From the IMG/VR virus record IMGVR_UViG_3300025087_000034: a DNA stretch of 64,000 nucleotides. One strand, given 5' to 3'. The first letter of the stretch is position 1. Each line of letters begins with the position of its first letter. This document shows, in pieces, positions 23,657-42,436 of this stretch. The notes beneath the pieces were generated by a model, which was given only the letters and a program-made list of their open reading frames with translations, had not been told where the DNA came from and did not search any database. The DNA comes from a virus. Lineage: Duplodnaviria > Caudoviricetes. Position numbers and translations under genes: made by a program.

Positions 23657-24946
23657 ATGGTGGAACAAAAGAAAGATAAAATAAAGATGCTAGTATACGC
23701 TGACTCTGTGACCGCATCTACAGGTTTTGGGGTCGTTATGAAAAATATATTGTTGCCTTTGCATAACACAGGCAAGTATGAAATAACCATGCTTGGCATA
23801 AATTACTGGGGAACCCCACACCAGGCCCCGTTTGAAATCTGGCCTGTGGGTGTGGAGTCCATGTTTAGTGGGGACAAGGATCCGTATGGACGGTTGTTTG
23901 TCCAAAGAAAAATAGCAGAATCTGAATTTGATATTTTATTTATGTTGCAAGATTCATTTATCCTTGAGTTTGTAAAGGATTTTCTTCCAAAGTTAAGGCA
24001 GAAGGGAAAAAAGTTTACTTCCGTTATATATTTTCCTATAGATGGAATCCCTAAGAAAAGTTGGATTGAAGCTATGAATGTAGCTGACATTCCCGTCACG
24101 TATACTGAATTTGCGAAAAATGAGTGTATAAAGATTATTCCGTCTATGGAGAAAAGACTTAGAATAATTCCTCATGGTGCTAATATGGCAGATTTTTATC
24201 CATTATCTTATAGGGAAAACTATGAGTTTAAGAAGGCTTATTATAGACATTTGGCTGACCGATTTATAGTTTTAAACGTAAACCGCAATCAGCAGAGAAA
24301 AGACATATTTCGCACAATGCTTGCGTTTAGAGAATTTCATAGGAAGTATCCTGATACACTTTTGAATCTGCACCTTGCGGTAAAGGATCAGGGTGGTGAT
24401 ATTCTGGCAGTAGCGGATTCTCTGGGTTTAGTGCCAAATGTCGATTTTATTTTTCCGTATAATTTTTCTCCTTCTACTGGTTTTCCTGTAGACGTGCTAA
24501 ATAGGATTTATAATTCTGCTGACGTAGTGATTAGCACATCTAAAGGAGAGGGCTGGGGGTTGGCTCAGGTAGAAGCGATGGCCTGCAAAACTTTAGTAAT
24601 TTCCCCAAATAATACGGCTTGTACGGAAATAGTAGGTGAAGACAGGGGATTATTAGTAAAAAGTGGTCATGATATTGACCATCTTGAAATTATGATGTAT
24701 GACAACGAAGTTCTTCGTCCTGTGGTTAATGTCCAAGACTTAGTAGATAAGTTAGAATTAGCTTATAATGATGAAGTATTAAGAATGAAGCTAGCAGAGA
24801 ATGGATATAACTGGGTTAGAAACACACTTGTGTGGGAAAATAATATAGTTCCCTTGTGGGAGGTCATATTTGAAGAGGCTATGGAGATGAAGAATAAGGG
24901 GCATGTTGTTGAAAGTGATGGTTTCGGTGAGGTAGAGGAGGTTTAG
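23657..24946 (+). CDS. glycosyltransferase, GT4 (GT-B)
   Basis: ATG 23657 after AAGGAG; STGFGVV, NVNRNQQRKD, EGWGLAQVEAMAC. Confidence 0.88.
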   Translation: MVEQKKDKIKMLVYADSVTASTGFGVVMKNILLPLHNTGKYEITMLGINYWGTPHQAPFEIWPVGVESMFSGDKDPYGRLFVQRKIAESEFDILFMLQDSFILEFVKDFLPKLRQKGKKFTSVIYFPIDGIPKKSWIEAMNVADIPVTYTEFAKNECIKIIPSMEKRLRIIPHGANMADFYPLSYRENYEFKKAYYRHLADRFIVLNVNRNQQRKDIFRTMLAFREFHRKYPDTLLNLHLAVKDQGGDILAVADSLGLVPNVDFIFPYNFSPSTGFPVDVLNRIYNSADVVISTSKGEGWGLAQVEAMACKTLVISPNNTACTEIVGEDRGLLVKSGHDIDHLEIMMYDNEVLRPVVNVQDLVDKLELAYNDEVLRMKLAENGYNWVRNTLVWENNIVPLWEVIFEEAMEMKNKGHVVESDGFGEVEEV

Positions 24947-24948
24947 TT

Positions 24949-26070
24949 ATGCGAGGTATAAAGGTCATAGGCCCATATAATGATGCTTCTGGTTATGCCC
25001 AGGCATTTAGAGACAACGTTTTGTCTTTATATAAACTAGGTTTTGATATTACTATACAACCTAGGAATTTTGAACCAAACCCCCCACCGGTTTCAAATAA
25101 AGAACACGCAGCTATATTGGATAAACTTGTTGGAAGAAATATTAAGTATGATATAACCTTCCAACAGCTCACCCCAGACTTGTGGCGTGACCATGTGGAG
25201 CCTGACAAGTATAATATAGGTTTTATGGCTTGGGAGACTTCTTTGCTCCCGCCAAAATTTGTTCATTCTTGTTCTTCTGTACAAGAAATTTGGGTTCCCA
25301 GTGATTATAATGTAAGTGTACTAAGGTCTTGTGGGGTTGAAGTTCCAATAACAAAAATACCACATAGTATAGACCCAAATTTGTTTAGTTCAATAGACTG
25401 TGGAGAGTATAGCCTAAAAGGTTTGTCAAATAACACATATAAGTTTTATAGTATTTTTCAATGGATCGAACGAAAAAATCCTATGGGTCTTGTACGTTCA
25501 TATTTTAATGCTTTTGATGACAGCGATGATGTTGTTCTTATATTAAAGACGTATCGTACTGGTATGGGACGTGATAAAGATTTTATTAGAGAAAAGATAG
25601 TGGAAATCAAAAGGGATATGAACATAGGGGCATATCCTAGGGTAGTGCTTATTGGGGACATGCTTAGTAAAAATCAGGTGTTAGGATTACATAAGTATTG
25701 TGATAGTTATGTATGTTTGCACCGGGGTGAGGGGTTCGGCCTTCCTCTGTTCGAGGCCGGGCTAGTCGGTAACCCTGTAATCGGTACTGGTTATGGTGGG
25801 AACACAGAGTTCATGAAAGAAGACAACAGCTATTTAGTAGAGTATCAAATGACGTATGTTTCTGGTATGAGTTCATTTAATCCTTGGTACTTAGGAAGCG
25901 GACAATGGGCAGAACCTAATTTGATTGACGCAAGTGAGAAAATGAATTATGTATTTAATAATAGAATAGAAGCTAGAGAGACAGGAAGGAGACTTCAAGA
26001 TTATATAGCTAGTAATTTTTCTACAGAAGCAGTTTCTAAGTTAATGTTTGATAGGTTATCAAAACTATAA
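24949..26070 (+). CDS. glycosyltransferase, GT4 (GT-B)
   Basis: ASGYAQA, WETSLLP, RKNPMGL, HRGEGFGLPLFEAG. Confidence 0.88.
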   Translation: MRGIKVIGPYNDASGYAQAFRDNVLSLYKLGFDITIQPRNFEPNPPPVSNKEHAAILDKLVGRNIKYDITFQQLTPDLWRDHVEPDKYNIGFMAWETSLLPPKFVHSCSSVQEIWVPSDYNVSVLRSCGVEVPITKIPHSIDPNLFSSIDCGEYSLKGLSNNTYKFYSIFQWIERKNPMGLVRSYFNAFDDSDDVVLILKTYRTGMGRDKDFIREKIVEIKRDMNIGAYPRVVLIGDMLSKNQVLGLHKYCDSYVCLHRGEGFGLPLFEAGLVGNPVIGTGYGGNTEFMKEDNSYLVEYQMTYVSGMSSFNPWYLGSGQWAEPNLIDASEKMNYVFNNRIEARETGRRLQDYIASNFSTEAVSKLMFDRLSKL

Positions 26071-26086
26071 CTTTTTGGGGGTTTTT

Positions 26087-26920
26087 ATGTTGCTGCGCGA
26101 AAAAATTATCTCATTGATTTACAGGGAAATTCTTGGTAGGGATGTAGACGATATTGGTTTGGGTATATATATGAGGTCTAGCGTTCCTATAGAGGTTGTA
26201 TATAGTGAGGTTTATAATTCCGATGAAGCAATGGAGTATAGGGATAGGATGGAGGAAGAGAGGTTTTTAAAGCAGGCGAATATTAAGTTGCCATTAACCT
26301 TAGCAATGTTTGTTAAGGACGTAGAAGACAGTGTAGAAATGGCTATAAGAAGTGTTTTACCTATAGTTAGTGAGGTTGTTATTACAGATACTGGTTCCTC
26401 TGATAGAACTATAGAGGTGTGTAAGGACCTGGGGGCTCGTGTCTATAGTGTGGGGTTTTCTGACTTTGGTAGCATAAGAACGGTGTCTGGTCATTTAAGT
26501 AGGCAGCCCTGGGTTCTTGGTTTGGACGCCGACGAGGTTGTTCTTTCTGAAGACCTTCCAAAATTTAAGGATTTAATAGAGAATAGTAATGTAGATGCCT
26601 GGGGTTTGCCAAGAAAACGATGGGCCGATTTGGAAATGCTAGTACAGGTAGAGCCGGAGGCATACCCGGATTTTCAATATAGGCTATTTCGTAATGATTT
26701 AAATATTATTTATGTTAGACGAATACACGAAATAATTAAAGGAACTGATAAAAAAGTGGAGGCGCTTGACGGTCCTTGTATACAGCACTTTCAAGATGTT
26801 TTTAAGTTCGGAGAAAAATTAAAATCAAGAAATTTACTTTATAAGAATTTGTATGATAAAGATATTTGTGATGGTGTGGGGCACGAGGGTTTAGCCGTAC
26901 AACCCATTGACGAGGTGTGA
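26087..26920 (+). CDS. GT2 glycosyltransferase with N-terminal DUF4214-like module
   Basis: IYREILGRDVDDIGL N-domain; DTGSSDRT, FSDFG..R, WVLGLDADE, RIHE. Confidence 0.85.
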   Translation: MLLREKIISLIYREILGRDVDDIGLGIYMRSSVPIEVVYSEVYNSDEAMEYRDRMEEERFLKQANIKLPLTLAMFVKDVEDSVEMAIRSVLPIVSEVVITDTGSSDRTIEVCKDLGARVYSVGFSDFGSIRTVSGHLSRQPWVLGLDADEVVLSEDLPKFKDLIENSNVDAWGLPRKRWADLEMLVQVEPEAYPDFQYRLFRNDLNIIYVRRIHEIIKGTDKKVEALDGPCIQHFQDVFKFGEKLKSRNLLYKNLYDKDICDGVGHEGLAVQPIDEV

Positions 26921-27729
26921 TTTTGTATATTAGTGTTCCAATAATTCTACGTAACATCGTAAGGCTTAATTACCCTGTGGAAATGGTAGTTGGTAGTGTT
27001 GCGGGCTTGGCTAATGAGGTTGTTTTGTGCGTCGACCCTTCCTCGGAGGACTCGACTGTTAAGTTGTGTGAGGAGATGTCTTTAAGGTCGAAGCTCGGTG
27101 GAATAAAGACAGATATACGTGTAGTATATAGTAAATGGGATTTAAAAAACATAACTGATACAGGATATGAATTTGCTAAACAAACAAATATAGCAATAGA
27201 TTACTGTATTGGGGACTGGGTGCTTCTTTTACAGGCCGATGAAGCAATTCACGAACAAGATTTTGATAAGATACTTGACGCAATTGATTATGCAAACGAT
27301 AATAATATAGATGGGTATGAAATGACACGTCTGTATTTTTATGGTAGTATGGATGTCATACGAGACGATTGGACAGTTCCTATTATAAGATTATTTAAGA
27401 AGGGGTCTAGAAAATCGTGTGGGGACGCTATGAATACCTTAGGTAAGGGAAGGGTTGAAAGACTTAATGTTCCAATATATCATTATTCACGTATAGGGGA
27501 TCCTGAAATTATATCTAAACGTATATTATCTTTGGATAAATTTTTTCACCGCGCGGAAAAATTAAAGGACGAAAAAGAACTTAAACCATACTCATTTGAC
27601 ACATATAACTTTGATTGTCAACATAAAGACAATATAGACATAGGAAGAAAAAAAGTAGAACAATCATTTAGTACATTTACAGGCACACACCCAAAAATAT
27701 TCGTTGGGTATACTGGGGAGGGTTTTTAG
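26917..27729 (+). CDS. GT2 glycosyltransferase
   Basis: VDPSSEDST, GDWVLLLQADEAIHE, IYHY. Confidence 0.85.
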   Translation: MILYISVPIILRNIVRLNYPVEMVVGSVAGLANEVVLCVDPSSEDSTVKLCEEMSLRSKLGGIKTDIRVVYSKWDLKNITDTGYEFAKQTNIAIDYCIGDWVLLLQADEAIHEQDFDKILDAIDYANDNNIDGYEMTRLYFYGSMDVIRDDWTVPIIRLFKKGSRKSCGDAMNTLGKGRVERLNVPIYHYSRIGDPEIISKRILSLDKFFHRAEKLKDEKELKPYSFDTYNFDCQHKDNIDIGRKKVEQSFSTFTGTHPKIFVGYTGEGF

Positions 27730-27732
27730 TTC

Positions 27733-28371
27733 ATGATATTAGAAATGTCTTCCTGGGCCAAACTAAATATAAAAGAACCTGCCCCTTTATATGAAGTTCC
27801 AGGAATTAATTCTATAGAACCTATTGATGTATATAATTTTCGTTATTCTCGTCCGTATACTGAATTAAGTAAACCAGAACTAGAGGACCCACACAGGCAG
27901 TATTTGGATGTTTTGTGTAATTTGGACAGGGGAAGCTCTCTTTTAATTTTTGGCTCTGGTCACAGTTTTAATATGAACATCTTTTATGATTATGGGAGGT
28001 TTTCTAGGCTTGTAGCTGTAGATTTTTCCGCGGCGGCAAAAATAGGTCTTTACAAAGAAATAGAATTTTACGATAATAATATACTAGAAGGTGACTTACC
28101 TGTTGTTTGTGACTATGTTTTTTCAGCTCATACTATAGAGCATTTTTATAAGAAAGAATTATTTGATATTGTTTTACCTAGATTGTTTAAGGCTGCTAGA
28201 AGGGGTGTAGTGATATTAGTACCGTACGGTACTAATTGGGCCGGGGAACCTTACCATAAGTGTCAGTTTTATGAAAATGATGAATTTGCATCGTTGTTTG
28301 ATAAATACAGGATTGTAAGAAAGGGTTCAGAAATTATATTTTTTAAAGGGGAAACTGACCATGGATTTTAG
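27733..28371 (+). CDS. class I SAM-dependent methyltransferase
   Basis: LLIFGSGHS (motif I variant), VAVDFS, DYVFSAHTIEHF. Confidence 0.7.
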   Translation: MILEMSSWAKLNIKEPAPLYEVPGINSIEPIDVYNFRYSRPYTELSKPELEDPHRQYLDVLCNLDRGSSLLIFGSGHSFNMNIFYDYGRFSRLVAVDFSAAAKIGLYKEIEFYDNNILEGDLPVVCDYVFSAHTIEHFYKKELFDIVLPRLFKAARRGVVILVPYGTNWAGEPYHKCQFYENDEFASLFDKYRIVRKGSEIIFFKGETDHGF

Positions 28372-28915
28372 TGGACTAAACACTGTTAAACAGGTATGTG
28401 AAAAAATAGGGCAGGTTATGCGTCCTTGTCCCGTATGTGTAGAAACAGGTACAATGTATGCTATTTCAGAAGAAAATCTAGTACACACAACTACCAACAA
28501 TATATTAAAGCATATATGCAGGCCTAATGGCGGTAAATTATTTTCTTTAGATATAGATAAAGAACATCAATACATTGCTAGGTCTGTGTGCTGCGGAGAT
28601 GATTGTGTATATGTTCTTGGTGATAGTATTGTTTCTTTGGGTCTCTTAAATTTTGAATTATCTTCTAAGGATTGTCCTATTGATGTTTTATGGTTAGATT
28701 CTAAGGAATTTGATATTGCACACACTGTTAATGAGTATAATGCTATCAAAGGGTGTTTAAATAAGAAGGGACATTTTGTTATGGTTGATGATATACACAA
28801 TGCTAATTCTGTTAAATATAAAGAAATAGTTCCTATTTTAAAGGGGGCCGGTTATTTTTGGGTAGAAGTCCTAACACCCACAGGGCTTTTTGTTTCGTGG
28901 GTTGGCTATGCCTAG
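28361..28915 (+). CDS. class I SAM-dependent methyltransferase (Methyltransf_24-like)
   Basis: VETGT, FSLDID, GDS, IDVLWLDS, VMVDD. Confidence 0.7.
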   Translation: MDFSGLNTVKQVCEKIGQVMRPCPVCVETGTMYAISEENLVHTTTNNILKHICRPNGGKLFSLDIDKEHQYIARSVCCGDDCVYVLGDSIVSLGLLNFELSSKDCPIDVLWLDSKEFDIAHTVNEYNAIKGCLNKKGHFVMVDDIHNANSVKYKEIVPILKGAGYFWVEVLTPTGLFVSWVGYA

Positions 28916-29052
28916 GTTGGTCGTTTTAAGTAATCCTAGGTCTGGTACATCTTTATTAACACATTTATAGTCATCTTACAGGGCCGTAAAACCCATCCCT
29001 TTAGGGGTGGGATATAAGGCCTTCTTGATTTTTAGAAAGATTAAAATAATAG

Positions 29053-29081
29053 TTGACCTTTTTAGCCTCGCAACCTATTAT
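29053..29081 (+). promoter_or_regulatory. tnpB promoter
   Basis: TTGACC-17 nt-TATTAT inside the element left end. Confidence 0.65.
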
Positions 29082-29109
29082 TATAATAAGTCCCAGGGAG
29101 GGACTTTCA

Positions 29110-30186
29110 ATGGTTAAAACTTTTTCCTTCCGTATAAAAGATTCCACCTCTGCTAAGCACCTTTATGCTATGGCTAGAGCTGTAAACTTTGTATGGAACT
29201 ATTGCAATGAGGTTCAAAAGAAGGCTGCTAATAGTCATAGGCCCTGGGTTAATTGGGTAATGTTAAATAACCTAACTTCCGGGTGTTCCAAGGAACTTCG
29301 TTTGCATAGCCAAACTATTCAAGCTATTGACGAATGTTATGCTACTTCACTAAAGGAAGCCAAATCTCCTACTGGTAAAAAGAAACGTTTCCTACGATTC
29401 CGTGGTAGAAGAAGCCAGGGCTGGATTCCTTTCAAAGCTTCTGGAATAAAACTTCGTAAGGATTCCGTTGTTTACCAAGGACGAATATTCCGCTTCTGGA
29501 AGACTCGAAGTATTCCTGAACAAATTAAGGGTGGAAACTTCTCTTGTGACGTTAGGGGTCGTTGGTACCTTAACCTTGTCTGTGAATACGAGGAAGCCCT
29601 TGTTTCCAACGAAGGTAGTGTTGGCATTGATTTAGGACTTAAGTCTTTGGCTACCTTGTCTAACGGTAAAAAGTACGATGCTCAAAAGTTCTTCCGCAAG
29701 TATGAGAGAAAGCTTGCTCACCACCAACGGTGTAATAATGCACGTCAAGTAAGAACGATTCATGCTAAGATAGCTAACTCTCGTAAAGATTTCAACCATA
29801 AAGTTTCCCATGAGTTGACCAGAGACTTTAATAAGGTATTCATCGGTGACGTAGACAGCCTTGGTCTATTAAAGACCAGGCTAGCCAAGTCAGTTTCCGA
29901 CGCTTCTTGGGGTCAGCTCCGTACCTTCATTGAATACAAAGCGATTGCGCGTGGTGGTACGTACTACGTTGTTGACGAGAACAACACTACTCGAACCTGT
30001 TCAGCCTGTGGGTGCCTTACTGGGCCCTCCGGTCTAGCAGGGCTTCGAGTTAGAGAATGGCAGTGTAAAGAGTGTGGCACGGTGCACGATAGGGATACCA
30101 ACTCAGCTATCAATATTGAACAACGAGGCCTCTCAACTCTGCATTCTCCACTCAGGACATTGAGTGCTAAAGAGGAAATTCCTTAG
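29110..30186 (+). CDS. tnpB: TnpB RNA-guided endonuclease (rearranged RuvC-II type)
   Basis: ATG 29110 after GGAGG. VNFVWNYC, GIDLGLK, VFIGDV, VDENNTTRTCSAC, CKECGTVHDRDTNSAINI. Confidence 0.92.
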   Translation: MVKTFSFRIKDSTSAKHLYAMARAVNFVWNYCNEVQKKAANSHRPWVNWVMLNNLTSGCSKELRLHSQTIQAIDECYATSLKEAKSPTGKKKRFLRFRGRRSQGWIPFKASGIKLRKDSVVYQGRIFRFWKTRSIPEQIKGGNFSCDVRGRWYLNLVCEYEEALVSNEGSVGIDLGLKSLATLSNGKKYDAQKFFRKYERKLAHHQRCNNARQVRTIHAKIANSRKDFNHKVSHELTRDFNKVFIGDVDSLGLLKTRLAKSVSDASWGQLRTFIEYKAIARGGTYYVVDENNTTRTCSACGCLTGPSGLAGLRVREWQCKECGTVHDRDTNSAINIEQRGLSTLHSPLRTLSAKEEIP

Positions 30187-30240
30187 GAATCCCCTGACTT
30201 TAGTCGGGGGAGGATGTCAATGCTTCGTTCTTTTGATTTG
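30060..30240 (+). ncRNA. TnpB omega/reRNA (scaffold to 30220, guide from the right flank)
   Basis: Established architecture of tnpB elements. The 5' boundary is approximate and not directly visible. Confidence 0.55.
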
Positions 30241-30402
30241 GGTTTTTTAGGAATAGTTCCCTATAATAATTTAGATCCACAGGATATGTATTCTTATCGT
30301 CTAGAGTTTTCTTCTATAAACTTACAGAGTATTACTGCAGAAGATAAGTTGTTTTTTATAATAAGGGACCCGCGGTCGGTTATTACCTCTGTGCATCCTT
30401 CA

Positions 30403-30412
30403 GGGGGGGGGG
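30403..30412 (+). repeat. G10 homopolymer tract (candidate phase-variation site)
   Basis: The longest G run I saw in the window. G9 or G12 would put the sulfotransferase halves in frame. Confidence 0.8.
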
Positions 30413-30823
30413 CCTTATGGATTTGATTATTCTGGGTGGATTAAGAATTTTCTTTTAGTAGAGCACTTATTTTTGTGTCCATTTTTATGCACAATATGGT
30501 TTGACGATCTTATATTACGCCCTAGTTTGGTTGAGGGTGTTATTTCAAGGTTTTTAAGGGCATCCCCTGTTAAATCATTTGAGTCTCATGGGGATACTTT
30601 TGAAGCAAAGTACGTTGGAGAAGACGGGATGGGGTTTGAAGCAGGGGGCTTTAGGTCTTTTGATGCAGAAAAGGTTTGTTCTTGGGAAAAAATAGAGCAT
30701 AGGGAGCGTTTAAAGAAGCAAATAATAACAAGTCCTTCTATGTTGAGCGATTTAGTGTACTTAGGGTTTGAGAATGACTCTTCTTGGGTTGCTGCCCTTT
30801 AATTCTAGCTTAGGAGACTACGT

Positions 30824-31864
30824 ATGAGAATTAAATTTTGTAATCCTATAACTCCGGATTTAAAATTAGTTAATTCCTACCTAAAAGAAAGCTTTACTTC
30901 TGGGTATTTATCTAATTTTGGTCCTGCCTATACTGAATTGTGTAGGAAGTTTAAAGAAAATGTATTTAATCTAGGCCCAGATAGGGAAATATTATTGACA
31001 TCTTCCGGTCACACTGCTCTTATGGCTGCTTATGCCGCTTTAGGGGTAAAAAGGCTATTGGTGCCGTCTTTTACATTTGAGGCTACTAGAGCGGCTGCTA
31101 CTTTGCAGGGTATAGGTACCATAATAAAGGATGTTGATCCTATGTCGGGATGTTTTACCGTTGATATTATAAAATCTGTGGACCCCTCCACATATGATGC
31201 TATAGTGGTTGTTTGTGCTTTATCAACAATACCAGATTTGGATAGTATACAACGATATTGTAGGTCGATGGGAAAACGTATGATTATTGATGCCGCCCCA
31301 GCTTTTGGTACTAAGAATATTTATTATTATGGGGATGCTTTTTGCTTGTCTTTTCATGCTACGAAAACATTGCCGGCCGGGGAGGGTGGAGCGGTTATAC
31401 TTAAATCAGATTACTACGATAAGGCTAGAAGTTTTATAAATTTTGGTTTCGATGACAAAAAAAATGTTTCTATGGTGGGCATGAATGCAAAGATTAGTGA
31501 GTATTCGTGTGCTGTTTTGCTGGCTCTTATTGAAAAAGTCAGGTTTGTTGTGGACAAGAGGCTAGAGAATTTACAGGTTTATCGTTCTTTTATTGACCAT
31601 TTAATACCTCCTACTTGGGTTTATAACACTGTGTACCAAAGTCTACCAATTTTTTTAGATAGCTCAGAAAAAGTTGGTCCTATAAGGAAAAGGTTGTCGG
31701 AGGTTGGAGTAGACACCCTACAATATTACTCCCCACTAGACCCTGGTTCTCCTGTTTCTGCTTCCCTTTATAGCAGAAATATAAATATTCCTATACACCA
31801 AGGTGTAAGTATAGAGGATATAGGTTTTATTTGTTCTGTAATTTTAGATGGGGGTTTAGAATGA
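30824..31864 (+). CDS. DegT/DnrJ/EryC1/StrS PLP-dependent sugar aminotransferase (VioA/WecE-like)
   Basis: SNFGP, SSGHTAL, IIDAAPAFG, SFHATKTLPAGEGG, GMNAKISE. Confidence 0.9.
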   Translation: MRIKFCNPITPDLKLVNSYLKESFTSGYLSNFGPAYTELCRKFKENVFNLGPDREILLTSSGHTALMAAYAALGVKRLLVPSFTFEATRAAATLQGIGTIIKDVDPMSGCFTVDIIKSVDPSTYDAIVVVCALSTIPDLDSIQRYCRSMGKRMIIDAAPAFGTKNIYYYGDAFCLSFHATKTLPAGEGGAVILKSDYYDKARSFINFGFDDKKNVSMVGMNAKISEYSCAVLLALIEKVRFVVDKRLENLQVYRSFIDHLIPPTWVYNTVYQSLPIFLDSSEKVGPIRKRLSEVGVDTLQYYSPLDPGSPVSASLYSRNINIPIHQGVSIEDIGFICSVILDGGLE

Positions 31865-35217: not shown

Positions 35218-35221
35218 ATGA
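33968..35221 (+). CDS. iscB: IscB RNA-guided endonuclease 1
   Basis: YVLNQRSQPLMP, LGVDSG (RuvC-I), Arg-rich bridge helix, VVEV, HNH (VHHL..RKTGGD...NLITLCKTCH), SHINDA. Start TTG 33968 is inferred. Confidence 0.93.
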   Translation: MRVSVYVLNQRSQPLMPTTPRKAEKLLKEGKAIVVKRAPFTIQLTYSTGENKQPIRLGVDSGFVHVGLSAVSKKQELYSAEVQLRIDIVNLLSERRSYRRNRRNRKTRYRQARFLNRGIKKGWRAPSIQHKLDSHIRLVNKVKQILPITEVVVEVASFDIQKIKNPEISGKQYQEGEQKDFWNTREYILHRDDHKCCHCKGKSKDPILSVHHLESRKTGGDKPANLITLCKTCHDDYHGGKIELKAKPSKGFKAEVFMTMVRWRLVEQLQCRYIYGYVTKQARVLLGLPKSHINDAFVIVSSGACPRSQTYFIKQVRKQNRKLFKGLHSGIRNTATRYIQGFQRYDKVLWKGQECFVFGRRTTGYFDLRLLDGTKVHTSAKAKDCVRLESGKTLLTQIRSSASSPWLKPRVSALEIQ

Positions 35222-35877
35222 CTGCTTTAGCTATAGTAGGAGCAGGGGGCCATGGTAGAGAGGTTTTATTATATTCTCAAGGGGTGCATGATTATAAATT
35301 TGAGGACGTATTTTTTCTTGACGATAATGAGAAACTAATAGGTTCTTATGTTTGTGATGCTTTGGTATTAGGTACAATAGAGGGGACCGTTGAAAGGCTG
35401 GATCCAGAAGATACCCTTTTTGTATGTGCCGTGGGTTCCCCTTATTTACGTATGGCCTTTGTTAACAGAGTACTCGCTGTGTGGGGCGACAGGGCTAAGT
35501 TCGCAAACATAGTGCATAGTAGTATTTTTTTATCGAAGTTTGTAAGTTTGGGTGTCGGGAGTATGGTTTGTCCTGGTACCTTAGTGACTACCAATGTAAA
35601 GATAGGTAACCATGTGAGTGTAAATTTGAATTGCACTCTAAGTCACGATGTTGTTATCGAGGACTTTGTGAATTTATCCCCCGCTGTACATTTATGTGGC
35701 GGTAGTATTCTTCGGGAGGGGTGCGACATAGGGGCGGCTGTAACTGTAATACCTAAGGTAGAAATTGGGGAGGGGGCTGTAGTAGGTGCCGGTGCTTGTG
35801 TTATTTCTGATATTCCACCACATAGTCTGGCTGTTGGTGTTCCTGCCAGAATTGTTCGTCACAATTTAAATAAGTGA
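35218..35877 (+). CDS. NeuD/PglD/VioB-family sugar N/O-acetyltransferase
   Basis: IVGAGGHGREV, FLDDN, AVGSP.LR, hexapeptide repeats (HD..IEDFV), VGVPAR. Confidence 0.9.
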   Translation: MTALAIVGAGGHGREVLLYSQGVHDYKFEDVFFLDDNEKLIGSYVCDALVLGTIEGTVERLDPEDTLFVCAVGSPYLRMAFVNRVLAVWGDRAKFANIVHSSIFLSKFVSLGVGSMVCPGTLVTTNVKIGNHVSVNLNCTLSHDVVIEDFVNLSPAVHLCGGSILREGCDIGAAVTVIPKVEIGEGAVVGAGACVISDIPPHSLAVGVPARIVRHNLNK

Positions 35878-35884: not shown

Positions 35885-36910
35885 ATGAAAATATTAGTTT
35901 GCTGTCCGGGGTCTTGGCGTCATGGTTTAGATAGCCCAGAAAGAGGGGAGGGTCGTTGGGCACAAAATTTAGCTCGTTTGCTAGGAAAGCTGGGGCATGA
36001 TGTATATGCCTGTAGTATGGGTGCTCCTATATGGGGGGAAGGTATAGTTGCTCAGAACGTGCGTCTTATACAAGAGCACGAGGCTAAGCAATTCCAGCCT
36101 TTTGATATATACATAGATACTGCTTGGTGGAATGAGAAGGTTCCCTCTGCTACAGCAAAGAAAAATTTCCATGTCCACTGGTCATTAGAGCAGCATTTAA
36201 GAACAGTTAACTTTCCAAAAGACCACTATATTATTTATCCCTATTATAGTTCAAAAGAATATTTTATTGGGGATTTTAATCCTATAAATGATAGAACTTT
36301 CTTTTTACCCGTTCCTCTATGTGAGACATTTGCTGAGCCTTCTTTTGATAAAAAAAGTTTACTTTGTCCTACAAGCGGTAATTCTTGGGACCATGCTCCT
36401 TACGAGTTATTTTCTATTTTTTCTAGGGTTTTGAAGGAAATCTTAAAAGAAAACCCTGATTTATCTACTGATTGGTTGTTTAGTGACGCTCTTGTGCCAC
36501 CAATATCCAAGCGTAATCTTATTAGCGAGTTGGATAATCGGGCAGGAAAAGATAGGTTTCATAGAACCTTACCATACCATAAAGTAATGTCTATTATTTC
36601 CAGTTGTAAGTTAGCTGTTCCCCTTAGAATACAGGGCTGCCTATTGGATTCAACCGCCCTTGGTGTCCCTACTATTGTTTGGGAAGAGTGTTGCTGGTTC
36701 CCAAGAATTAAACAAATAGCGGAAAATAACGGTGTTCTTATAGAAAAGGGAAATGAAACATGTGATAGACTTAAGCATATTGTTTCTTTACTTCTTACAG
36801 ATAAAGAATTATATATAAAGTATGTTAAGGAGCTTCAAGGTGAACTTGGTCATCATACAGAGGCCGGTACTGCAGCGTGTTTTAATCATATATTGGAACA
36901 GATTTTTTAA
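35885..36910 (+). CDS. divergent GT-B glycosyltransferase (paralog of 39306-40304)
   Basis: MKILVCCP...GEGRWAQNLARLLGKLGHDV N-terminus and LDSTALGVPTIV C-terminus. Confidence 0.6.
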   Translation: MKILVCCPGSWRHGLDSPERGEGRWAQNLARLLGKLGHDVYACSMGAPIWGEGIVAQNVRLIQEHEAKQFQPFDIYIDTAWWNEKVPSATAKKNFHVHWSLEQHLRTVNFPKDHYIIYPYYSSKEYFIGDFNPINDRTFFLPVPLCETFAEPSFDKKSLLCPTSGNSWDHAPYELFSIFSRVLKEILKENPDLSTDWLFSDALVPPISKRNLISELDNRAGKDRFHRTLPYHKVMSIISSCKLAVPLRIQGCLLDSTALGVPTIVWEECCWFPRIKQIAENNGVLIEKGNETCDRLKHIVSLLLTDKELYIKYVKELQGELGHHTEAGTAACFNHILEQIF

Positions 36911-36928: not shown

Positions 36929-37879
36929 ATGTCTTTCAAAAGATTAAATATTTTTATTACAGGTATAAATGGTTTTCTAGGAACTGCTACGGCAGAATAT
37001 TTTTTAAACTGTGGTGCACATGTTATCGGTTTAGTTAGAGATCAGAATAGAAAGACAATGAGGGGGATTCAGGATAGATGTTCCATTGTTTATGGGGATG
37101 TTACTGATAAGTCATTGGTTCAGCGTATTATTTCCCATTATGAGGTTGACTATGTTATACATCTTGCCTCTCAGCCCATAGTTAAGATTTGTGATAATGA
37201 CCCCTATACTGCTTATAATACTAATGTTATGGGCGTTGTTAGTGTTTTGGAGGCGTGCAGAGTAATGAGGCAGGCAGCACCACGGGTCTTGGTAATGTCC
37301 TCGGATAAGTTCTATAGTAATGCACAAGAGCTTCCTTATGTAGAGGATTTATCCCCTATTGTCTCTGATACATATTGTACGTCCAAGCTATGCCAAGATT
37401 TTATTGCCCGTTCATACGCTATTACCTATAACCTACCTATATTTACGGCTCGTGCGGGTAACATCTACGGTCCAGGGGACTTGAACTTGTCTCGTCTTAT
37501 ACCAAAAAACACCATTAGAATTCTTGAGGGTGATAATCCGGTTTTGTATGGTCAGGCGGCTGAGTTTGTTAGGGAATTTTTGTACATAGACGATATAATG
37601 ACTGCTTTTGACACACTACTTACAAAAGCGGTTCCAGGGGAGGCCTATAATATTGGTGGTACCAAGCCGTATAAGATACTAGATGTTTTAGAACTCTTAA
37701 GAGACAAGATAAACCCAAATATTAAAATAGATGTAGTTGATGTTGATTTTTACGAAATAAGCAAGCAGTATTTAGACGCTTCGAAACTCATGTCTTTAGG
37801 GTGGTGCCCTAAGGTTTCTTTGGACGAAGGTTTGTCTCGAACTATTTCTTGGTATAAAGACTATTTAAATAGGGTTTAA
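36929..37879 (+). CDS. NAD-dependent NDP-sugar 4,6-dehydratase/epimerase (RfbG/Gmd-like)
   Basis: ITGINGFLG, HLASQP, TNVMG, SSDKFY, YCTSK, RAGNIYGPGD, REFLYIDD. Confidence 0.9.
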   Translation: MSFKRLNIFITGINGFLGTATAEYFLNCGAHVIGLVRDQNRKTMRGIQDRCSIVYGDVTDKSLVQRIISHYEVDYVIHLASQPIVKICDNDPYTAYNTNVMGVVSVLEACRVMRQAAPRVLVMSSDKFYSNAQELPYVEDLSPIVSDTYCTSKLCQDFIARSYAITYNLPIFTARAGNIYGPGDLNLSRLIPKNTIRILEGDNPVLYGQAAEFVREFLYIDDIMTAFDTLLTKAVPGEAYNIGGTKPYKILDVLELLRDKINPNIKIDVVDVDFYEISKQYLDASKLMSLGWCPKVSLDEGLSRTISWYKDYLNRV

Positions 37880-37884: not shown

Positions 37885-38532
37885 ATGTACAAAAAATACG
37901 AAAAGGTTTTGTTAGAAGAGTGTGGCATAGATTTTAATCGCTATATAACCGTTTTGGCTAATAATGGTAACACTACTGGTATATATGCTGACGTTGCTTT
38001 GTTACTGTATAGGTTAGTAAGGTTTAGTGGTACTAATAGTGTGTTGGAGTTTGGTAGTGGCATGAGTACCCTTATACTGTCAAAGGCTTGTATGGATTAT
38101 GGTAAGAATTTGGTGGTGGGAGAGTCCGGGCGTAAGTGGTATAATATAACAAAGGTGTGTTTAGATGCACTGTCTTTAAACAGCAGAGGGTTTGTGTGTA
38201 CAGATAGCGATGAAAGTAAGTTTCCTGTTTTGGATGGTCCTGTTTCCTTAGTGTGGGTTGATGGTACTGTTTCCGAAGTACAGGGGCCTGGGTATAATAG
38301 GCTGGGGTCTTGTGAGTATTATTGGAATAGTATAAAAGGGGCCTGCCTTCTTTTTGATGATTCTGAGTCTGCTTATATGTCTGGTATTAAACCAGTACTT
38401 GAACAAAACGGCAGAAGTGACGATAGTTATTTTTTATTTAATCCAACCGGGAGAGGTGATAGGCAGGTCTTGGTTTCTGTACCAGAGTCTGGTGAACAAT
38501 TTTTAGACGTTGTAAAATCTTGTATTCTTTAA
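37885..38532 (+). CDS. SAM-dependent methyltransferase-like protein
   Basis: VLEFGSGMSTL, LVWVDG, LLFDDS. Confidence 0.65.
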   Translation: MYKKYEKVLLEECGIDFNRYITVLANNGNTTGIYADVALLLYRLVRFSGTNSVLEFGSGMSTLILSKACMDYGKNLVVGESGRKWYNITKVCLDALSLNSRGFVCTDSDESKFPVLDGPVSLVWVDGTVSEVQGPGYNRLGSCEYYWNSIKGACLLFDDSESAYMSGIKPVLEQNGRSDDSYFLFNPTGRGDRQVLVSVPESGEQFLDVVKSCIL

Positions 38533-38542
38533 GGGGGGTATC

Positions 38543-39304
38543 ATGAGTTATAGAATTTCAGAAGAACAAATACGAAAAGATCAGGCAGAATTTAAGAAGG
38601 AGTATCCTCCGTTTGTGCCTTTTGCACTAAATTCTAGTGATAAAAATAAGTTAGCTAATAAGTTTTCTTCCCTACTAGTAACACAAAACGGAATGGACAC
38701 AGACGACTACTGTGTTAATGATAACAACAAGGTAGAGACGTATTTAAAGGACGTAAAACCTGGCAGCACTGTTTTACTTTTGGGTACGGGTACAGGAAGA
38801 GAGGTGCTGGTGGCTAAAGAGATGGGGTTTTTAGCTATAGGTACGACTTTGGGTTCACGAAATGTTTATTTTGGTCACAAGTTTTTGCGTTTGGGTCCGA
38901 GTGAGTTAGTTGAGTGTGCAAACGAGGTCCTACCTTTTAGAAACAATTCTTTTGACGTTGTAGCTGGGTTCCAAGTATTTGAACATGCCATAGCTCCGTT
39001 TTTATTTTTGATGGAGTTACGAAGGGTTTTGAAGTACGGGGGAAGGGTTTTAATGGAGTGGCCTCCTGCGTCAGACTACCATATGGGCCAAAATCCCCAC
39101 CATCAAGTTTGTTACTGTCCTGGACAGGCGGAGTCCTTGTTACAAAAGGCTTGTTTTGAAAATATAAAGTCCTATTATAGTAATTTGCAGCCCATACCAG
39201 ACGATGAAGTATGGTCTGCTAGGAATCACGGGCATATGTTGTGTGTTGAGGGCATAAAAAGTAGGGCCGAACAAGATTTTGTTGGTTTGTATTTAGGAGC
39301 TTAG
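38543..39304 (+). CDS. class I SAM-dependent methyltransferase (Methyltransf_11-like)
   Basis: VLLLGTGTG, LPFRNNSFDVV, VFEH, RVLKYGG. Confidence 0.85.
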   Translation: MSYRISEEQIRKDQAEFKKEYPPFVPFALNSSDKNKLANKFSSLLVTQNGMDTDDYCVNDNNKVETYLKDVKPGSTVLLLGTGTGREVLVAKEMGFLAIGTTLGSRNVYFGHKFLRLGPSELVECANEVLPFRNNSFDVVAGFQVFEHAIAPFLFLMELRRVLKYGGRVLMEWPPASDYHMGQNPHHQVCYCPGQAESLLQKACFENIKSYYSNLQPIPDDEVWSARNHGHMLCVEGIKSRAEQDFVGLYLGA

Positions 39305-39305
39305 G

Positions 39306-40304
39306 GTGAAGGTACATATTAATTGCCCTGGTATGTGGAGGGCGGACTTGGAAAGCCCAGAAAGGGGAGAGAGCAGGTGGGCTCAAAACTTAGTTAAGTT
39401 GTTGGGCACTGCAGGGCACGAGGTTTATGCTTCTAGTTATGGGTACCCAGAGTGGGTTAACCCTCCTGTTCCTAATGTTACCCTACTTAATGAGACGATG
39501 GATATGAGGGTATTGGGGAAGCTAGACTTACACATAGACGCTTCTTGGTGGGACGGTAAGGTTTTTCCAATAGATGCTAAGAAGAAGGTAATGGTTAAGT
39601 GGTCATTAGAAGACTATTTAAAAAAAGAGCCGTTACCAAAAGACCATTACCTATTTTATCCTTATGAGTCTAGGGAAGTTTTATTTATGAATGACCAAAA
39701 CCCAAGTAGGGATAGAACTTTTTTTATGCCTATACCTTTGTGTGAAAAGTTTGAAGAACCAAAGTTTAATAACAAAGGTATTTTATGGCCCTCAAAGGGG
39801 TTAGACGTAGAGGCAGGCTTTAAGGGGACGGCTGCATTTGTTTTGAAAGAGGTTTTATATCCCCTCCTTGAGCAAGATAATTCATTATTCGTTATTTGGA
39901 TGATGTACCATGAACTTATAAAAACTGATTTAGATATACGAGTACGTAATGGAATAGATGAAAGATATCCTTCATGTGCTTATAATGTAGTTATTGACCT
40001 GTTAAAAAGAAGTAAAATAGCTTTACCAATAAACCATCCCGGATCTATATTAGAATGTGCAGCCTATGGTGTAGCTAGTCTTATATGGGAAGACGCTGGG
40101 TTTTTTCCTGAGGTAGCCAAAAATAATGGTTTATTAATTGAGCGTGGGGCTAAAAAAGAAAGGATTAAAGAAGTTATATTACAACTTCTTAACGATGAAT
40201 CAGTATACAATAAATACGTAAAAGATTTACAGTACGTATTAAGACATCATGAAAACCCAACAGCTCTTTCTATATTTAATGATATAATGAGCAAGATATT
40301 TTAG
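39306..40304 (+). CDS. divergent GT-B glycosyltransferase (paralog of 35885-36910)
   Basis: Shares SPERGE.RWAQNL, WSLE, PKDHY, DRTFF.P.PLCE.F.EP.F; ILECAAYGVASL. Confidence 0.6.
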   Translation: MKVHINCPGMWRADLESPERGESRWAQNLVKLLGTAGHEVYASSYGYPEWVNPPVPNVTLLNETMDMRVLGKLDLHIDASWWDGKVFPIDAKKKVMVKWSLEDYLKKEPLPKDHYLFYPYESREVLFMNDQNPSRDRTFFMPIPLCEKFEEPKFNNKGILWPSKGLDVEAGFKGTAAFVLKEVLYPLLEQDNSLFVIWMMYHELIKTDLDIRVRNGIDERYPSCAYNVVIDLLKRSKIALPINHPGSILECAAYGVASLIWEDAGFFPEVAKNNGLLIERGAKKERIKEVILQLLNDESVYNKYVKDLQYVLRHHENPTALSIFNDIMSKIF

Positions 40305-40324
40305 CTTTCCTAGGAGGATTTAAA

Positions 40325-41206
40325 ATGACCGACCTACCCATCGTTTATTGTGCTATGTGTAAAAACAACCTTTTTCAGTTAAATGAGGCTGTTGAATCTG
40401 TTCTTCCGTTTGTTGACTATGTTGTATTGGTTGACGGAGGCTCAGACGATTGCACGCTATTCCATTTTCATGGAAGGGAGGACGAGGGTATACACCTATT
40501 TTTACACCCATGGAAAGACCATTTTTCTGAGCAGAGAAATAATTATATAAAGAGGGCCAGGGAGGTTGTGGGTTCGGACTCCTTTTGGATTTTGGTTAGT
40601 GACCCAGATGAGCACTTTGATTCACAAACCTTGATGTCTTTGAGGGGGGTTCAAAGTACCTGTGTTAGCAGGAGACTTAATTCCGCGATGTTCAGGTGTA
40701 GGAGTGAGTCTTACATAGGGAACAGGAAGGTGTGGGAAAATTTAGATGATTATCGAAAGTTGTTGTTTTTTTCATACGAACCGGGTATGGAGTACAGAGG
40801 AAATCCTCACGAGCACCTTGTTTTCCCGTCCGGAAATCCCCGGCCATTGGTGACTGATCTAATTTATTCACATAAAAAGTGGGAGTCCGTTATCTGGGAG
40901 CGCGGATGTCGCAATTATTGGATTCAAGGTGGGGGCGATAACGCCGGCGTAAAAAATCAACTTTGGGTGGAATTACGCCAACTTACAAAGGACTACTACG
41001 GAAGGGACCTATCTTGGGCTGAGTTCCAAAGGGAACTTGTCTATGCAACAATACCTGACACGGTAAAGAGTTGGATGATTAATAAAGCTAGGTTGGATAC
41101 AGGCTGGAGCGGGTCATCTGAATCTAGGGAAAATTACAAATATTTTTTCCGGTTTTTACATGCAGAATTAGAACCAGAAGAACTTCGTGGAACTTATATA
41201 GAATAG
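40325..41206 (+). CDS. GT2 glycosyltransferase
   Basis: VDGGSDD, WKDHFSEQRN, WILVSDPDE, PHE. Confidence 0.82.
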   Translation: MTDLPIVYCAMCKNNLFQLNEAVESVLPFVDYVVLVDGGSDDCTLFHFHGREDEGIHLFLHPWKDHFSEQRNNYIKRAREVVGSDSFWILVSDPDEHFDSQTLMSLRGVQSTCVSRRLNSAMFRCRSESYIGNRKVWENLDDYRKLLFFSYEPGMEYRGNPHEHLVFPSGNPRPLVTDLIYSHKKWESVIWERGCRNYWIQGGGDNAGVKNQLWVELRQLTKDYYGRDLSWAEFQRELVYATIPDTVKSWMINKARLDTGWSGSSESRENYKYFFRFLHAELEPEELRGTYIE

Positions 41207-41215
41207 GAGAAAAAA

Positions 41216-41509
41216 ATGAAGTACATGCCTGTAAAGGAATTTCTTGATAGTGGTTTATTATTCTTAGTAAATAAGGATATATTGCATCCTTTAGGTCTTG
41301 CGCTGTCAGTGTCCATAAGTGAAGAGGGAGAATATAGTTTTGTGGGTATTTGGGATTGTAGAGAAGATCCAGGCGGGCTTAGTTATGAAGAGGAAACCTA
41401 TAGAGACGGGCAGGAAAAGTGGCTGAAATATTATGATGAACAAGGTAGAAATAAAATAAGTGAGAGACACACTATTTTAGGTTATGTAGTACAAGAATTA
41501 GACAAGTAG
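41216..41509 (+). CDS. hypothetical protein
   Basis: 97-aa ORF with AGGAG SD, inside the operon. Confidence 0.6.
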   Translation: MKYMPVKEFLDSGLLFLVNKDILHPLGLALSVSISEEGEYSFVGIWDCREDPGGLSYEEETYRDGQEKWLKYYDEQGRNKISERHTILGYVVQELDK

Positions 41510-41512
41510 ATT

Positions 41513-42436
41513 ATGAATATACTTCTTCTTGGTGGCGCTGGTCTTATAGGTCGGCAACTAGAAAAACTTCTATCAGAAGACGGTCATAAAACTACCGTTA
41601 TGGACAATTTTATGACTAGTGATGGTAAAGGATACAAACCAGTTGGAAATATTATAACAGGTAACACAACAATGTTTTCAAATGTAAAACCTGTTTTTTC
41701 TACATTTAGTCCTGATGTTGTTTTTCATTTTTCCGAGTGTTGTACGGACAAAAATGGGGATTATGATTTCATACTTGAGTCTCAAAATAAAATAGGTACT
41801 TGTTATTCTATATTACAATCTTTAAATTTATATAGTGTAAAATATATTTTTTATGGTTCATCTTGTGAGGTTTTTTCTTCCCCCGGCCAAAAAAAATTAC
41901 ACGAGAATAGTAAGACAGGGGGGTTTTCATATACTGGAAAAACAAATGATTATGTAGAAAAGTTCTTTGAAGAAGCTTCAAAATATTATGGGTTTAAATT
42001 TATTCCTATTAGATATTTTAATGTTTGTGGCGAGCGTTTAGTTCCAAATCCTAAGTCTGATATAGTAACTTCTTTTGTTGATTTGGTATTGAATAATGTA
42101 TATTTTGATATTTTTGGTCCAAATTCATTAATTGACGTTTTAGACGTTGACGATGCTGTAAAAGCAACTTATTTATTATATAAGTCTGTTGTTGAAGGTT
42201 CTTTTTGTGGACCAATAAATATTGGTTCTGGTAATCCAATAAAACTTATAGAATTGTTCGAGAAGGTAAATTTTTCTATAACGGATGAAAAATTAAAACC
42301 AGGTAAAATGAAGTCTAATGGGAATGTAGGTTCTTTTGTGTGTGATAATACATTGATGCGCTCTCTTGGGTGGGAGCCTTCTGTGGATATTGAGTCTAGT
42401 ATAGCTAAGGTTGTAAAATTTCGCCGGGGGAAATAA
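41513..42436 (+). CDS. NAD-dependent epimerase/reductase (extended SDR, atypical catalytic motif)
   Basis: LLGGAGLIG, RYFNVCG, IDVLDVDDAV, INIGSG. The YxxxK motif is degenerate (YTGKT). Confidence 0.75.
   Translation: MNILLLGGAGLIGRQLEKLLSEDGHKTTVMDNFMTSDGKGYKPVGNIITGNTTMFSNVKPVFSTFSPDVVFHFSECCTDKNGDYDFILESQNKIGTCYSILQSLNLYSVKYIFYGSSCEVFSSPGQKKLHENSKTGGFSYTGKTNDYVEKFFEEASKYYGFKFIPIRYFNVCGERLVPNPKSDIVTSFVDLVLNNVYFDIFGPNSLIDVLDVDDAVKATYLLYKSVVEGSFCGPINIGSGNPIKLIELFEKVNFSITDEKLKPGKMKSNGNVGSFVCDNTLMRSLGWEPSVDIESSIAKVVKFRRGK

Follow-up and report, generated by a model that had tools for sequence, protein, structure and literature searches.

A compact island of 19 genes, spanning positions 23657-42436 (~19 kb) of a 64,000-nucleotide stretch of viral DNA from IMG/VR record IMGVR_UViG_3300025087_000034 (hereafter the window), is predicted to direct the synthesis of a methylated hetero-oligosaccharide that includes a 4-acetamido-4,6-dideoxyhexose. 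As the acceptor of this glycan we tentatively favor one or more phage-encoded proteins, probably proteins of the virion. A first-pass annotation of the window had proposed a glycan-building cluster on a phage genome, and this proposal is borne out: the cluster is real rather than a product of chance.

The window represents bases 28353-92352 of a linear record of 133,010 bp, for which CheckV estimates a completeness of 58%; the contig-wide family scans reported below thus cover 133 kb (~58% of the genome), and 42% of the genome lies outside the contig. The source is an uncultured groundwater jumbo phage with a genome of ~260 kb. The sequence of the island's DegT-family aminotransferase recurs unchanged in 22 or more contigs with lengths of up to 258,514 bp, and the stretch is present in 11 sequencing runs from five groundwater/soil metagenome studies (nine of the 11 runs may be assembly sources). 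Every sizeable gene of the window is carried by the plus strand, as are all features of the island, and the GC content is uniform at ~0.38, the island being indistinguishable from the rest. The island lies between replication genes and polA, as had been described: DnaB, DnaG, DnaJ, RuvC, a Cas4-like PD-(D/E)XK nuclease and GIY-YIG homing endonucleases are encoded on its 5' side, and PolA, ribonucleotide reductase (RNR), PhoH and a Lon-like protease on its 3' side. Megablast gave no match for the island block among cultured phages, and the viral contig collection, from which near-identical records were excluded, likewise yielded nothing when scanned with a PolA pattern or for exact 28-mers. PolA is ~30% identical to polymerases of crAss-like and other phages, with no cultured phage close. 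For comparison we refer to loci from uncultured viruses, among them four close relatives (L010, L012, L014 and L015).

Within the island, intergenic gaps range from -65 to +20 nt, except around two mobile elements and a broken sulfotransferase gene. Because two mobile elements, one TnpB and one IscB, break up the gene run, the island cannot be described as one coupled operon, as the first-pass annotation had it; a terminator and promoter scan yielded no usable signal (13 terminators versus 13.5 expected). None of the 20 island open reading frame (ORF) products checked contains a transmembrane-like segment.

Seven of the genes encode glycosyltransferases, in the classes initially assigned (two GT4, three GT2 and two divergent GT-B enzymes); GT4a, GT4b and GT2a are identified by Pfam, GT2b and GT2c via their orthologues and the GT-B pair via structure. 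The island opens with GT4a, a GT-B family 4 glycosyltransferase (23657..24946; Glycos_transf_1, 3e-16; phrog_2170, 1e-47) that displays the EX7E motif, has orthologues of 45% identity in L010 and L015 and finds its best PDB match in B736L of chlorovirus NY-2A (2e-8). It is followed by a second family 4 enzyme, GT4b (24949..26070; Glycos_transf_1, 1.5e-6; EX7E motif GEGFGLPLFEA), whose orthologues in L010, L015 and L014 are 36-49% identical. GT2a, a GT-A family 2 enzyme (26087..26920; Glycos_transf_2, 9e-7; DXD motif LDADE), is kept, 45-57% identical, by each of the four close relatives. GT2b (26917..27729) is a divergent GT2-like protein that falls slightly under the Pfam cut-off (Glycos_transf_2, 8.7e-5); it is found in four relatives (30-57% identity), and its orthologues carry Glycos_transf_2. 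GT2c (40325..41206) also diverges (Glycos_transf_2, 1.7e-3, under the cut-off), with a DXD motif SDPDE and orthologues in L012, L015 and L014 that are Glycos_transf_2 proteins.

The two remaining glycosyltransferases, proteins of 332-341 residues, are paralogues. The first (35885..36910), found in all four relatives, belongs to a family without a Pfam model; 36 protein clusters of this family could be aligned, all of them metagenomic, none named and none with a Pfam match. An AlphaFold2 model of the product has a pLDDT of 93.8 and a pTM of 0.91, and Foldseek retrieved GT4/GT1 enzymes with this model at E ~1e-9, ManT, MshA, PimA and WaaG at the top; the neighbors include the small-molecule or lipid glycosyltransferases MshA, BshA, PimA, YjiC and CalG. 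The second (39306..40304) is 40% identical to the first and shows a weak Glycos_transf_1 match (0.006). Judged by the modeled fold, both are GT-B glycosyltransferases.

Four further enzymes are candidates for sugar-nucleotide synthesis. A nucleoside diphosphate (NDP)-hexose 4,6-dehydratase-like short-chain dehydrogenase/reductase (SDR; 36929..37879; Epimerase, 7e-47), with GxxGxxG and YxxxK (YCTSK) motifs, occurs in all relatives at 41-60% identity. Its best NCBIfam model is dTDP-glucose 4,6-dehydratase (1e-50), followed by the CDP-glucose model (1e-40), both under cut-off. Its best PDB matches are RmlB enzymes, the STDE of which aligns with SSDK in the phage protein, so that TDE is exchanged for SDK; we take the D-K pair to be of the type found in CDP-glucose 4,6-dehydratases. 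With these residues and the CDP model in second place, the carrier nucleotide is therefore not fixed and may be dTDP or CDP. A DegT/DesI-like pyridoxal phosphate-dependent sugar aminotransferase (30824..31864; Pfam DegT, 3e-43), with the lysine in SFHATK, scores best among NCBIfam models with DesI (3e-35), under the equivalog cut-off. The third enzyme is a sugar N-acetyltransferase of the NeuD/PglB/VioB family (35218..35877), which exceeds the cut-off of TIGR03570 (187.7 versus 160.8 bits) and contains PglD_N and hexapeptide repeats. The fourth, a GalE-like SDR (41513..42436; Epimerase, 3e-22; GalE model, 2e-22, under cut-off) that may act as a 4-epimerase or a 4-ketoreductase, is encoded by the last gene of the island, 7 nt 5' of polA, and its orthologue likewise immediately precedes the PolA gene in L012 and L015. 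Both SDRs of the first-pass annotation are thus present as Epimerase matches.

A Pfam family search found no 3,4-ketoisomerase family among the island products, while the distant sugar loci L002 and L003 do carry dTDP_sugar_isom. Given a DesI-like aminotransferase unaccompanied by a ketoisomerase, together with a VioB/PglD-family acetyltransferase, we therefore predict a 4-acetamido-4,6-dideoxyhexose, the same product to which the triad of dehydratase, DegT and NeuD/VioB enzymes had been assigned before. The earlier description of the cluster as autonomous, on the other hand, does not stand, as the 133-kb contig contains no NDP-sugar pyrophosphorylase (RmlA-like; NTP_transferase, PF00483), nor were a flippase, a polymerase or a priming transferase found.

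Up to five S-adenosylmethionine (SAM) methyltransferases and a radical SAM enzyme may decorate the glycan. Of the five methyltransferases proposed earlier, two are firm, namely a Methyltransf_24 protein (33065..33724; 1.6e-18) that is 66% identical in L012 and a Methyltransf_11 protein (38543..39304; 4.6e-11) that is 56% identical in L010 and L012. The other three are sub-threshold candidates identified through their orthologues: a class I enzyme of 212 residues (27733..28371), with an own match of 0.09 and an L012 orthologue (40% identity) that matches Methyltransf_23 (5e-6) and six more methyltransferase models; a CmcI-like candidate sugar O-methyltransferase of 184 residues (28361..28915; Methyltransf_24, 0.007; RMNT_CmcI, 3e-4, in the L012 orthologue), a core gene found in four relatives at 40-51% identity; and a protein of 215 residues (37885..38532; Methyltransf_24, 0.017, and 1.3e-4 in the L012 orthologue) with the motif I sequence LEFGSGMS. 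These three showed no pairwise similarity to the firm one and no sequence match in the PDB. The B12 radical SAM enzyme, a further element of the first-pass annotation, is clearly present (31861..33120), with B12-binding (PF02310, 8e-10) and Radical_SAM (PF04055, 4e-20) domains and an intact CX3CX2C motif (CPFKCAFC). It is a class B enzyme and a candidate sugar C-methylase, its best NCBIfam models being PhpK- and HpnJ-like, all under cut-off; it is 71% identical in L012 and absent from L010, L014 and L015.

A sulfated glycan, as previously suggested, is not supported: the sulfotransferase gene is a fixed pseudogene and sulfation has been lost. Its N-terminal piece (28908..28967) comprises the first 20 codons, including the loop PRSGTS for the 5'-phosphosulfate of 3'-phosphoadenosine 5'-phosphosulfate (PAPS), and ends at a stop codon made by the insertion of a TnpB element after TTAT. 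The remainder (30223..30802), which includes RDPRSVITS, is disrupted by a +1 frameshift in a G10 tract (~30393-30402), and its frame is open only when one base of this tract is skipped (-1 correction). The language-model features of the repaired protein gave 0.95 to sulfotransferase clusters; it had no Pfam match, and a genome scan with Sulfotransfer_3 was negative. The G10 tract, the TnpB insertion and the IscB insertion are identical across six independent assemblies. Phase variation at the G10 tract was considered and, the six assemblies being identical, found unsupported, although contigs cannot reveal minority variants. In the relatives' loci examined, the sole sulfotransferase homologue detected is L010:6066-6653, an intact ORF of 195 residues that lacks the PRSGTS loop, which suggests, from sequence comparison, an independent loss of sulfation; a 287-residue gene in the sulfotransferase slot of L012 was rejected as a homologue, since it is unrelated. 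With the only homologue lacking the PAPS loop and none in the other relatives, sulfation is therefore not a conserved property of the island.

The IS200/IS605-type TnpB element in the sulfotransferase gene (28969..30220, ends approximate; tnpB ORF at 29110-30186) encodes an OrfB_IS605 protein with a Cas12f1-like TNB domain and is absent in L010, L012 and the P0004 contig. The best bacterial TnpB matches, 41-49% identical, are scattered over Oxalobacteraceae, Cyclobacteriaceae and others and do not pin down the host. The IscB-type gene (33803..35221; RRXRR, 1.6e-65; HNH, 5e-6), located between a methyltransferase and the acetyltransferase gene and not part of the pathway, is missing at the corresponding junction in the P0004 contig and in L012. 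In one locus, L006:1-8140, compared with window positions 28964-30220, the sequence passes, precisely where the TnpB element has its left end, into a different region with RNA ligase, RtcB and ankyrin genes. L006 is the only diverged assembly, and all 135 mismatches fall within the TnpB element; we therefore suggest that a second, ~89% identical TnpB copy exists elsewhere and that L006 is a chimera or a recombinant. A solo fragment of the TnpB left end was seen at contig positions G000:C1:121029-121094. Two IscB-type genes, at 33803-35221 and 49534-50937, are ~80% identical as DNA, with upstream segments 91% identical, and both coincide with local GC peaks (0.43 versus 0.38); the 80% identical paralogous stretch of the second extends over 49841-50934. 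A 97-residue protein encoded near the 3' end of the island (41216..41509) has no family match; a 40% identical homologue is found in L002, outside the sugar cluster there.

Together, these enzymes could be arranged in a pathway in which sugar identity, C4 regiochemistry, nucleotide carrier, glycan assembly and acceptor are inferred. Host NDP-glucose (dTDP- or CDP-linked) would be converted to a 4-keto-6-deoxy sugar by the dehydratase-like SDR, aminated at C4 by the DegT/DesI-like enzyme and N-acetylated by the NeuD/VioB-type enzyme, giving an NDP-4-acetamido-4,6-dideoxyhexose. The GalE-like SDR may provide a second sugar, epimeric or reduced. The seven soluble glycosyltransferases (two GT4, three GT2 and two GT-B) would then build a hetero-oligosaccharide, to be O- or N-methylated by up to five SAM methyltransferases and possibly C-methylated by the B12 radical SAM enzyme. 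From the seven transferases, the up to five methyltransferases and the class B radical SAM enzyme, a methylated hetero-oligosaccharide is therefore predicted. Assembly would take place in the cytoplasm, with no lipid carrier provided by the island itself.

The island has kept its place in related phages, one of the checks that had been proposed for the cluster. L010, L012 and L015 retain it in the slot between DnaJ-RuvC-PD-(D/E)XK and PolA-RNR; in L010 and L015 it starts directly after DnaJ-RuvC-PD-(D/E)XK, and in L012 and L015 it ends with the GalE-like SDR directly 5' of PolA, with RNR next in L015. Island proteins are 23-71% identical to their counterparts in L010, L012 and L015, PolA 38-56%, and RuvC and the PD-(D/E)XK nuclease 41-47%; island and core genes are thus about equally diverged, and we therefore suggest that the island diverged along with the core genome. 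L014 keeps core island genes at 26-46% identity. Where the locus is complete, all four close relatives have a core that consists of GT2a and GT2b, the dehydratase, the GT-B enzyme and the CmcI-like methyltransferase; GT4b is present in three of them, as is GT2c. Variation among relatives affects the DegT/NeuD branch, the B12 radical SAM enzyme and the methyltransferases next to it, the Methyltransf_11 protein, the second SDR and the sulfotransferase. As far as can be read from these loci, fixed flanks and a core with a changing interior are the pattern of O-antigen loci, and the interior variation would give related phages different glycans. In the same slot, L015 has a different, 507-residue radical SAM-like protein (8481-10004), a papain-like Peptidase_C1 protein (14669-15511) and an NT5C nucleotidase (16427-16963) among the glycosyltransferases, and these inserts show that the interior of the island is freely exchanged. 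The distant phage sugar clusters L002 and L003 (RmlB, RmlC-like isomerase, DegT, GT2 and methyltransferases) have a gene for a dual-specificity phosphatase (DSPc) in their interior (L002:7896-8321 and L003:6680-7099).

These comparisons also bear on whether the cluster stems from the recent capture of a host lipopolysaccharide (LPS) or exopolysaccharide (EPS) locus and is now decaying, a possibility that the first-pass annotation had raised against its own reading. The inactivation of the sulfotransferase by an insertion and a frameshift, and the landing of two mobile elements in the block, would fit such decay. It is contradicted by the synteny with relatives whose replication proteins have diverged as much as their island proteins, by a GC content equal to that of the rest of the window and by catalytic motifs that are intact in all proteins checked (GT4a and GT4b, the GT2 enzymes, both SDRs, DegT and the radical SAM enzyme); the IscB insertion, moreover, lies between genes. 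The DegT clade comprises ~95 proteins of 37-69% identity, with identity falling sharply to 34% or less outside the clade, and six of six genomic contexts of its members are phage-like, as is every examined context of the GT-B clade. We consider recent capture and decay to be close to negligible as an explanation. Apart from the dead sulfotransferase, the island is intact, long resident, modular and conserved in its lineage.

What the glycan is attached to is less clear from the genes. Phage or virion proteins are our best reading, in part because of where the nearest homologues of GT4a lie in cultured phages: in three of four such phages they are found in or beside head-morphogenesis modules. 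The order in S-CBS4 is portal, unknown, GT4, GalT, methyltransferase, then protease and major head protein, and that in Mae-JY09 is major capsid protein, unknown, GT4, head-tail adaptor; in TJE1, a mini-cluster of nucleotidyltransferase, epimerase, methyltransferase and glycosyltransferase genes lies just 5' of terS, terL and portal. The best PDB match of GT4a, a chlorovirus glycosyltransferase, points the same way. Both observations are associations and serve as pointers, not as proof. In addition, since the island products have no transmembrane segments and include no Wzx, Wzy or priming transferase, assembly is therefore expected to be soluble. Seven glycosyltransferases and heavy methylation would, by analogy, resemble what is seen for the protein glycans of giant viruses.

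Several observations weigh against this assignment. The GT4a homologue of the fourth phage, S-EIVl, adjoins primase, and the island itself lies within the replication module and not by structural genes. The island could be tied neither to a glycoprotein nor to an acceptor motif or a capsid gene. The giant upstream proteins that had been proposed as fibers have an unremarkable Ser/Thr content and only a sub-threshold F5/8-C match in Pfam. O-antigen GT2 and GT4 enzymes are also soluble by sequence, and the use of host undecaprenyl phosphate (Und-P) is therefore compatible with a set of enzymes devoid of membrane segments. Among the enzymes, all NCBIfam scores at the equivalog level apart from that of NeuD are under cut-off, and the SDK in place of TDE leaves the dehydratase activity and nucleotide specificity of the SDR uncertain. 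As a separate observation on the upstream region, a protein of 2057 residues encoded at window positions 1280-7453, 5' of the replication genes, shows sub-threshold F5/8 type C and Golvesin_C matches and has no PHROG match.

Alternatively, NDP-sugar, transferases and methylases could be fed into a host pathway for Und-P-linked O-antigen, capsule, EPS or protein O-glycosylation, remodeling the envelope, for example, for superinfection exclusion or to block re-adsorption of progeny. GT2, GT4, DegT and NeuD proteins are the usual content of O-antigen loci, the modular variation among relatives is likewise O-antigen-like, and the 24 LPS genes of the lytic cyanomyovirus P-SSM2 were read in this way by its authors (PMC1079782); expression together with replication genes, presumed from gene position, would also suit an action before lysis. 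Yet the hallmarks of a Wzx/Wzy- or ABC-dependent locus (priming phosphoglycosyltransferase, flippase or ABC exporter, polymerase or ligase) are not represented by any Pfam family among the island products, and a priming transferase, flippase, polymerase, ligase or membrane protein is missing from the island and, by Pfam, from six related loci, so a foreign glycan would need to be accepted by the Wzx, Wzy and ligase of the host. The position of GT4a homologues in or near the head modules of small cultured phages (three of four) also speaks for another target, and we regard envelope remodeling as unlikely, if still a serious contender. A non-structural protein (of phage or host), or else a small molecule or lipid, as acceptor we judge to be doubtful: no acceptor has been identified, and MshA, BshA, PimA, YjiC and CalG are among the structural neighbors of the GT-B enzyme, but a set of seven transferases implies a glycan of considerable size, genes for a carrier or for export are missing, and positive support is lacking.

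The oligosaccharide might also be placed on a hydroxylated base of the phage DNA, where it would block host nucleases. This idea draws on the position of the island within a replication/nucleotide module, directly 5' of polA here and in L012 and L015, as DNA-glycan clusters often lie near polymerases and employ LPS-like GT-A/GT-B enzymes (Pyle et al., 10.1101/2023.12.21.572611). The known routes to glycosylated DNA require either a ThyA homologue or the combination of a C5-methyltransferase with a TET-like dioxygenase, usually encoded beside the transferases. Yet no ThyA (PF00303), TET/JBP (PF12851), C5-methylase (PF00145) or DpdA/TGT was detected in the 133-kb contig, extending the earlier statement that the window has no base-hydroxylating enzyme, and none is listed in six related loci; intact hypermodification pathways are usually clustered (Pyle et al., 10.1101/2023.12.21.572611). 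Moreover, known DNA glycans contain at most three sugars, and no sugar was detected in the virion DNA of Flavobacterium phage immuto, which has a distantly homologous, collinear cluster (PMC10516641). The spread of RNA-guided TnpB and IscB elements within the genome points, by inference, in the same direction, and the scarcity of GATC, which suggests exposure to restriction, does so weakly. The contig has 154 GATC sites where 257 would be expected (observed/expected 0.60); it is also depleted in CpG (rho 0.60) and poor in several palindromes of 6 bp, GTCGAC and GAGCTC among them. A ThyX homologue (PF02511, 6e-42) is encoded 6.4 kb past the window end, at contig positions G000:C1:98799-99494 (L001:1486-2181). 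In this protein, RHR is changed to RIA(H) and LEH to LRF, while the Ser and QRY are retained; the variant is shared by a clade of ~24 protein clusters and some phage ThyX proteins of 190 residues, and it is probably functional because it is conserved in this clade. An argument that the presence of ThyX implies normal thymidine was dropped, as its motifs are altered. That the ThyX variant makes a hydroxylated or hydroxymethylated pyrimidine on which the seven transferases build a methylated DNA oligosaccharide beyond the known size seems very improbable to us. The first-pass annotation had left DNA hypermodification open; with the enzymes missing and immuto DNA devoid of detected sugar, we consider it less likely than was allowed then and rate it as improbable overall. 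We do not dismiss it, given the 42% of the genome outside the contig and the atypical, clade-conserved ThyX.

Phage glycosylation clusters and the viosamine clusters of giant viruses are already known. What is new is how large the island is, that it is conserved at a fixed position and that it varies in the manner of an O-antigen locus; new, too, are a GT-B family that no Pfam model covers and a cultured analogue through which the question can be tested. With 19 enzyme genes, the island is among the larger glycosylation islands of tailed phages, and it represents a stable trait of an uncultured lineage of large phages, probably including jumbo phages. Glycans made by viruses have been well described for giant viruses of eukaryotes and for a few mycobacteriophages, while large phage systems are uncharacterized. 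If the glycan resides on the virion, this would imply that the phages fall into "serotypes" and that some selective agent can tell these apart. The soluble GT-B family, the B12 radical SAM enzyme encoded among sugar genes and the dehydratase with the SDK site are, in addition, candidates for rare-sugar biocatalysis.

The comparisons with Mimivirus and mycobacteriophages drawn by the first-pass annotation are apt as analogies, through the shared triad route in the one case and soluble phage glycosyltransferases in the other. Giant viruses use UDP-linked sugars. In Megavirinae/Mimivirus and chlorovirus, viral dehydratase/aminotransferase/N-acetyltransferase routes lead to viosamine-type sugars and are accompanied by glycosyltransferases and methylation, with clusters that differ by clade (PMC4691112, PMC10117803, PMC9614988). 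Unlike the island, these systems belong to eukaryotic viruses, and there is no sign of a common descent of the clusters; the best solved relative of GT4a is the chlorovirus protein B736L. In mycobacteriophages, soluble phage glycosyltransferases act in the cytoplasm, and glycans are found on capsid and tail-tube subunits, according to the account of Freeman et al. 2023 given in PMC12619734. The island likewise encodes soluble glycosyltransferases, seven in number and without membrane segments; mycobacteriophages have far fewer enzymes, in contrast to the 19 enzyme genes that lie here in a replication module.

Phage DNA-glycan clusters (Pyle et al., 10.1101/2023.12.21.572611; Lee et al., PMC13326640) resemble the island in their LPS-like GT-A/GT-B enzymes, in sometimes having NDP-sugar synthesis genes and in lying near replication genes. 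They differ in that they rely on a ThyA homologue, or on 5mYOX acting with a C5-methyltransferase, usually encoded nearby and not found on the present contig, and in that they make glycans of up to three sugars. The T4-like cyanophage P-SSM2 is likewise a lytic phage with many polysaccharide genes (24) whose target is unknown, in another phage lineage and with other genes (PMC1079782). Closer are the uncultured relatives L010, L012/L013, L015 and L014, which share the slot and a core of GT4, two GT2, GT-B, dehydratase and CmcI-like genes at 30-60% identity and differ in the interior, where DegT/NeuD, radical SAM, extra methyltransferase and sulfotransferase genes come and go. The lineage is possibly related to the moraphages, aquatic phages of 200-307 kb with DnaJ, PolA, PhoH and glutamine-synthetase-like genes and four core glycosyltransferase orthogroups that were not analyzed (PMC12619734, 2025).

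By analogy of gene order, phage immuto is the closest cultured counterpart. Like the phage described here, this large myovirus has its cluster after a Cas4-like PD-(D/E)XK nuclease, collinear with the island, in the order glycosyltransferase, glycosyltransferase, unknown, GT2, DegT, methyltransferase, glycosyltransferase, PglD-like acetyltransferase, SDR, GT2. Five island proteins (GT4a, GT4b, GT2a, NeuD and the dehydratase) match their positional counterparts in immuto at 21-32% identity; gp173, the third glycosyltransferase of immuto, was tried as a member of the GT-B family and rejected, as it falls outside that family. Unlike the island, the immuto cluster has no B12 radical SAM enzyme, polA lies on its other side, and its function is unstudied. 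Immuto virion DNA, as analyzed by liquid chromatography with ultraviolet and tandem mass spectrometric detection, contains canonical dA, dC and dT, with fdPreQ1 replacing dG (PMC10516641), a modification that sets it apart from the present contig, which is without DpdA. Immuto could thus serve as a cultured model for the experimental identification of the acceptor.

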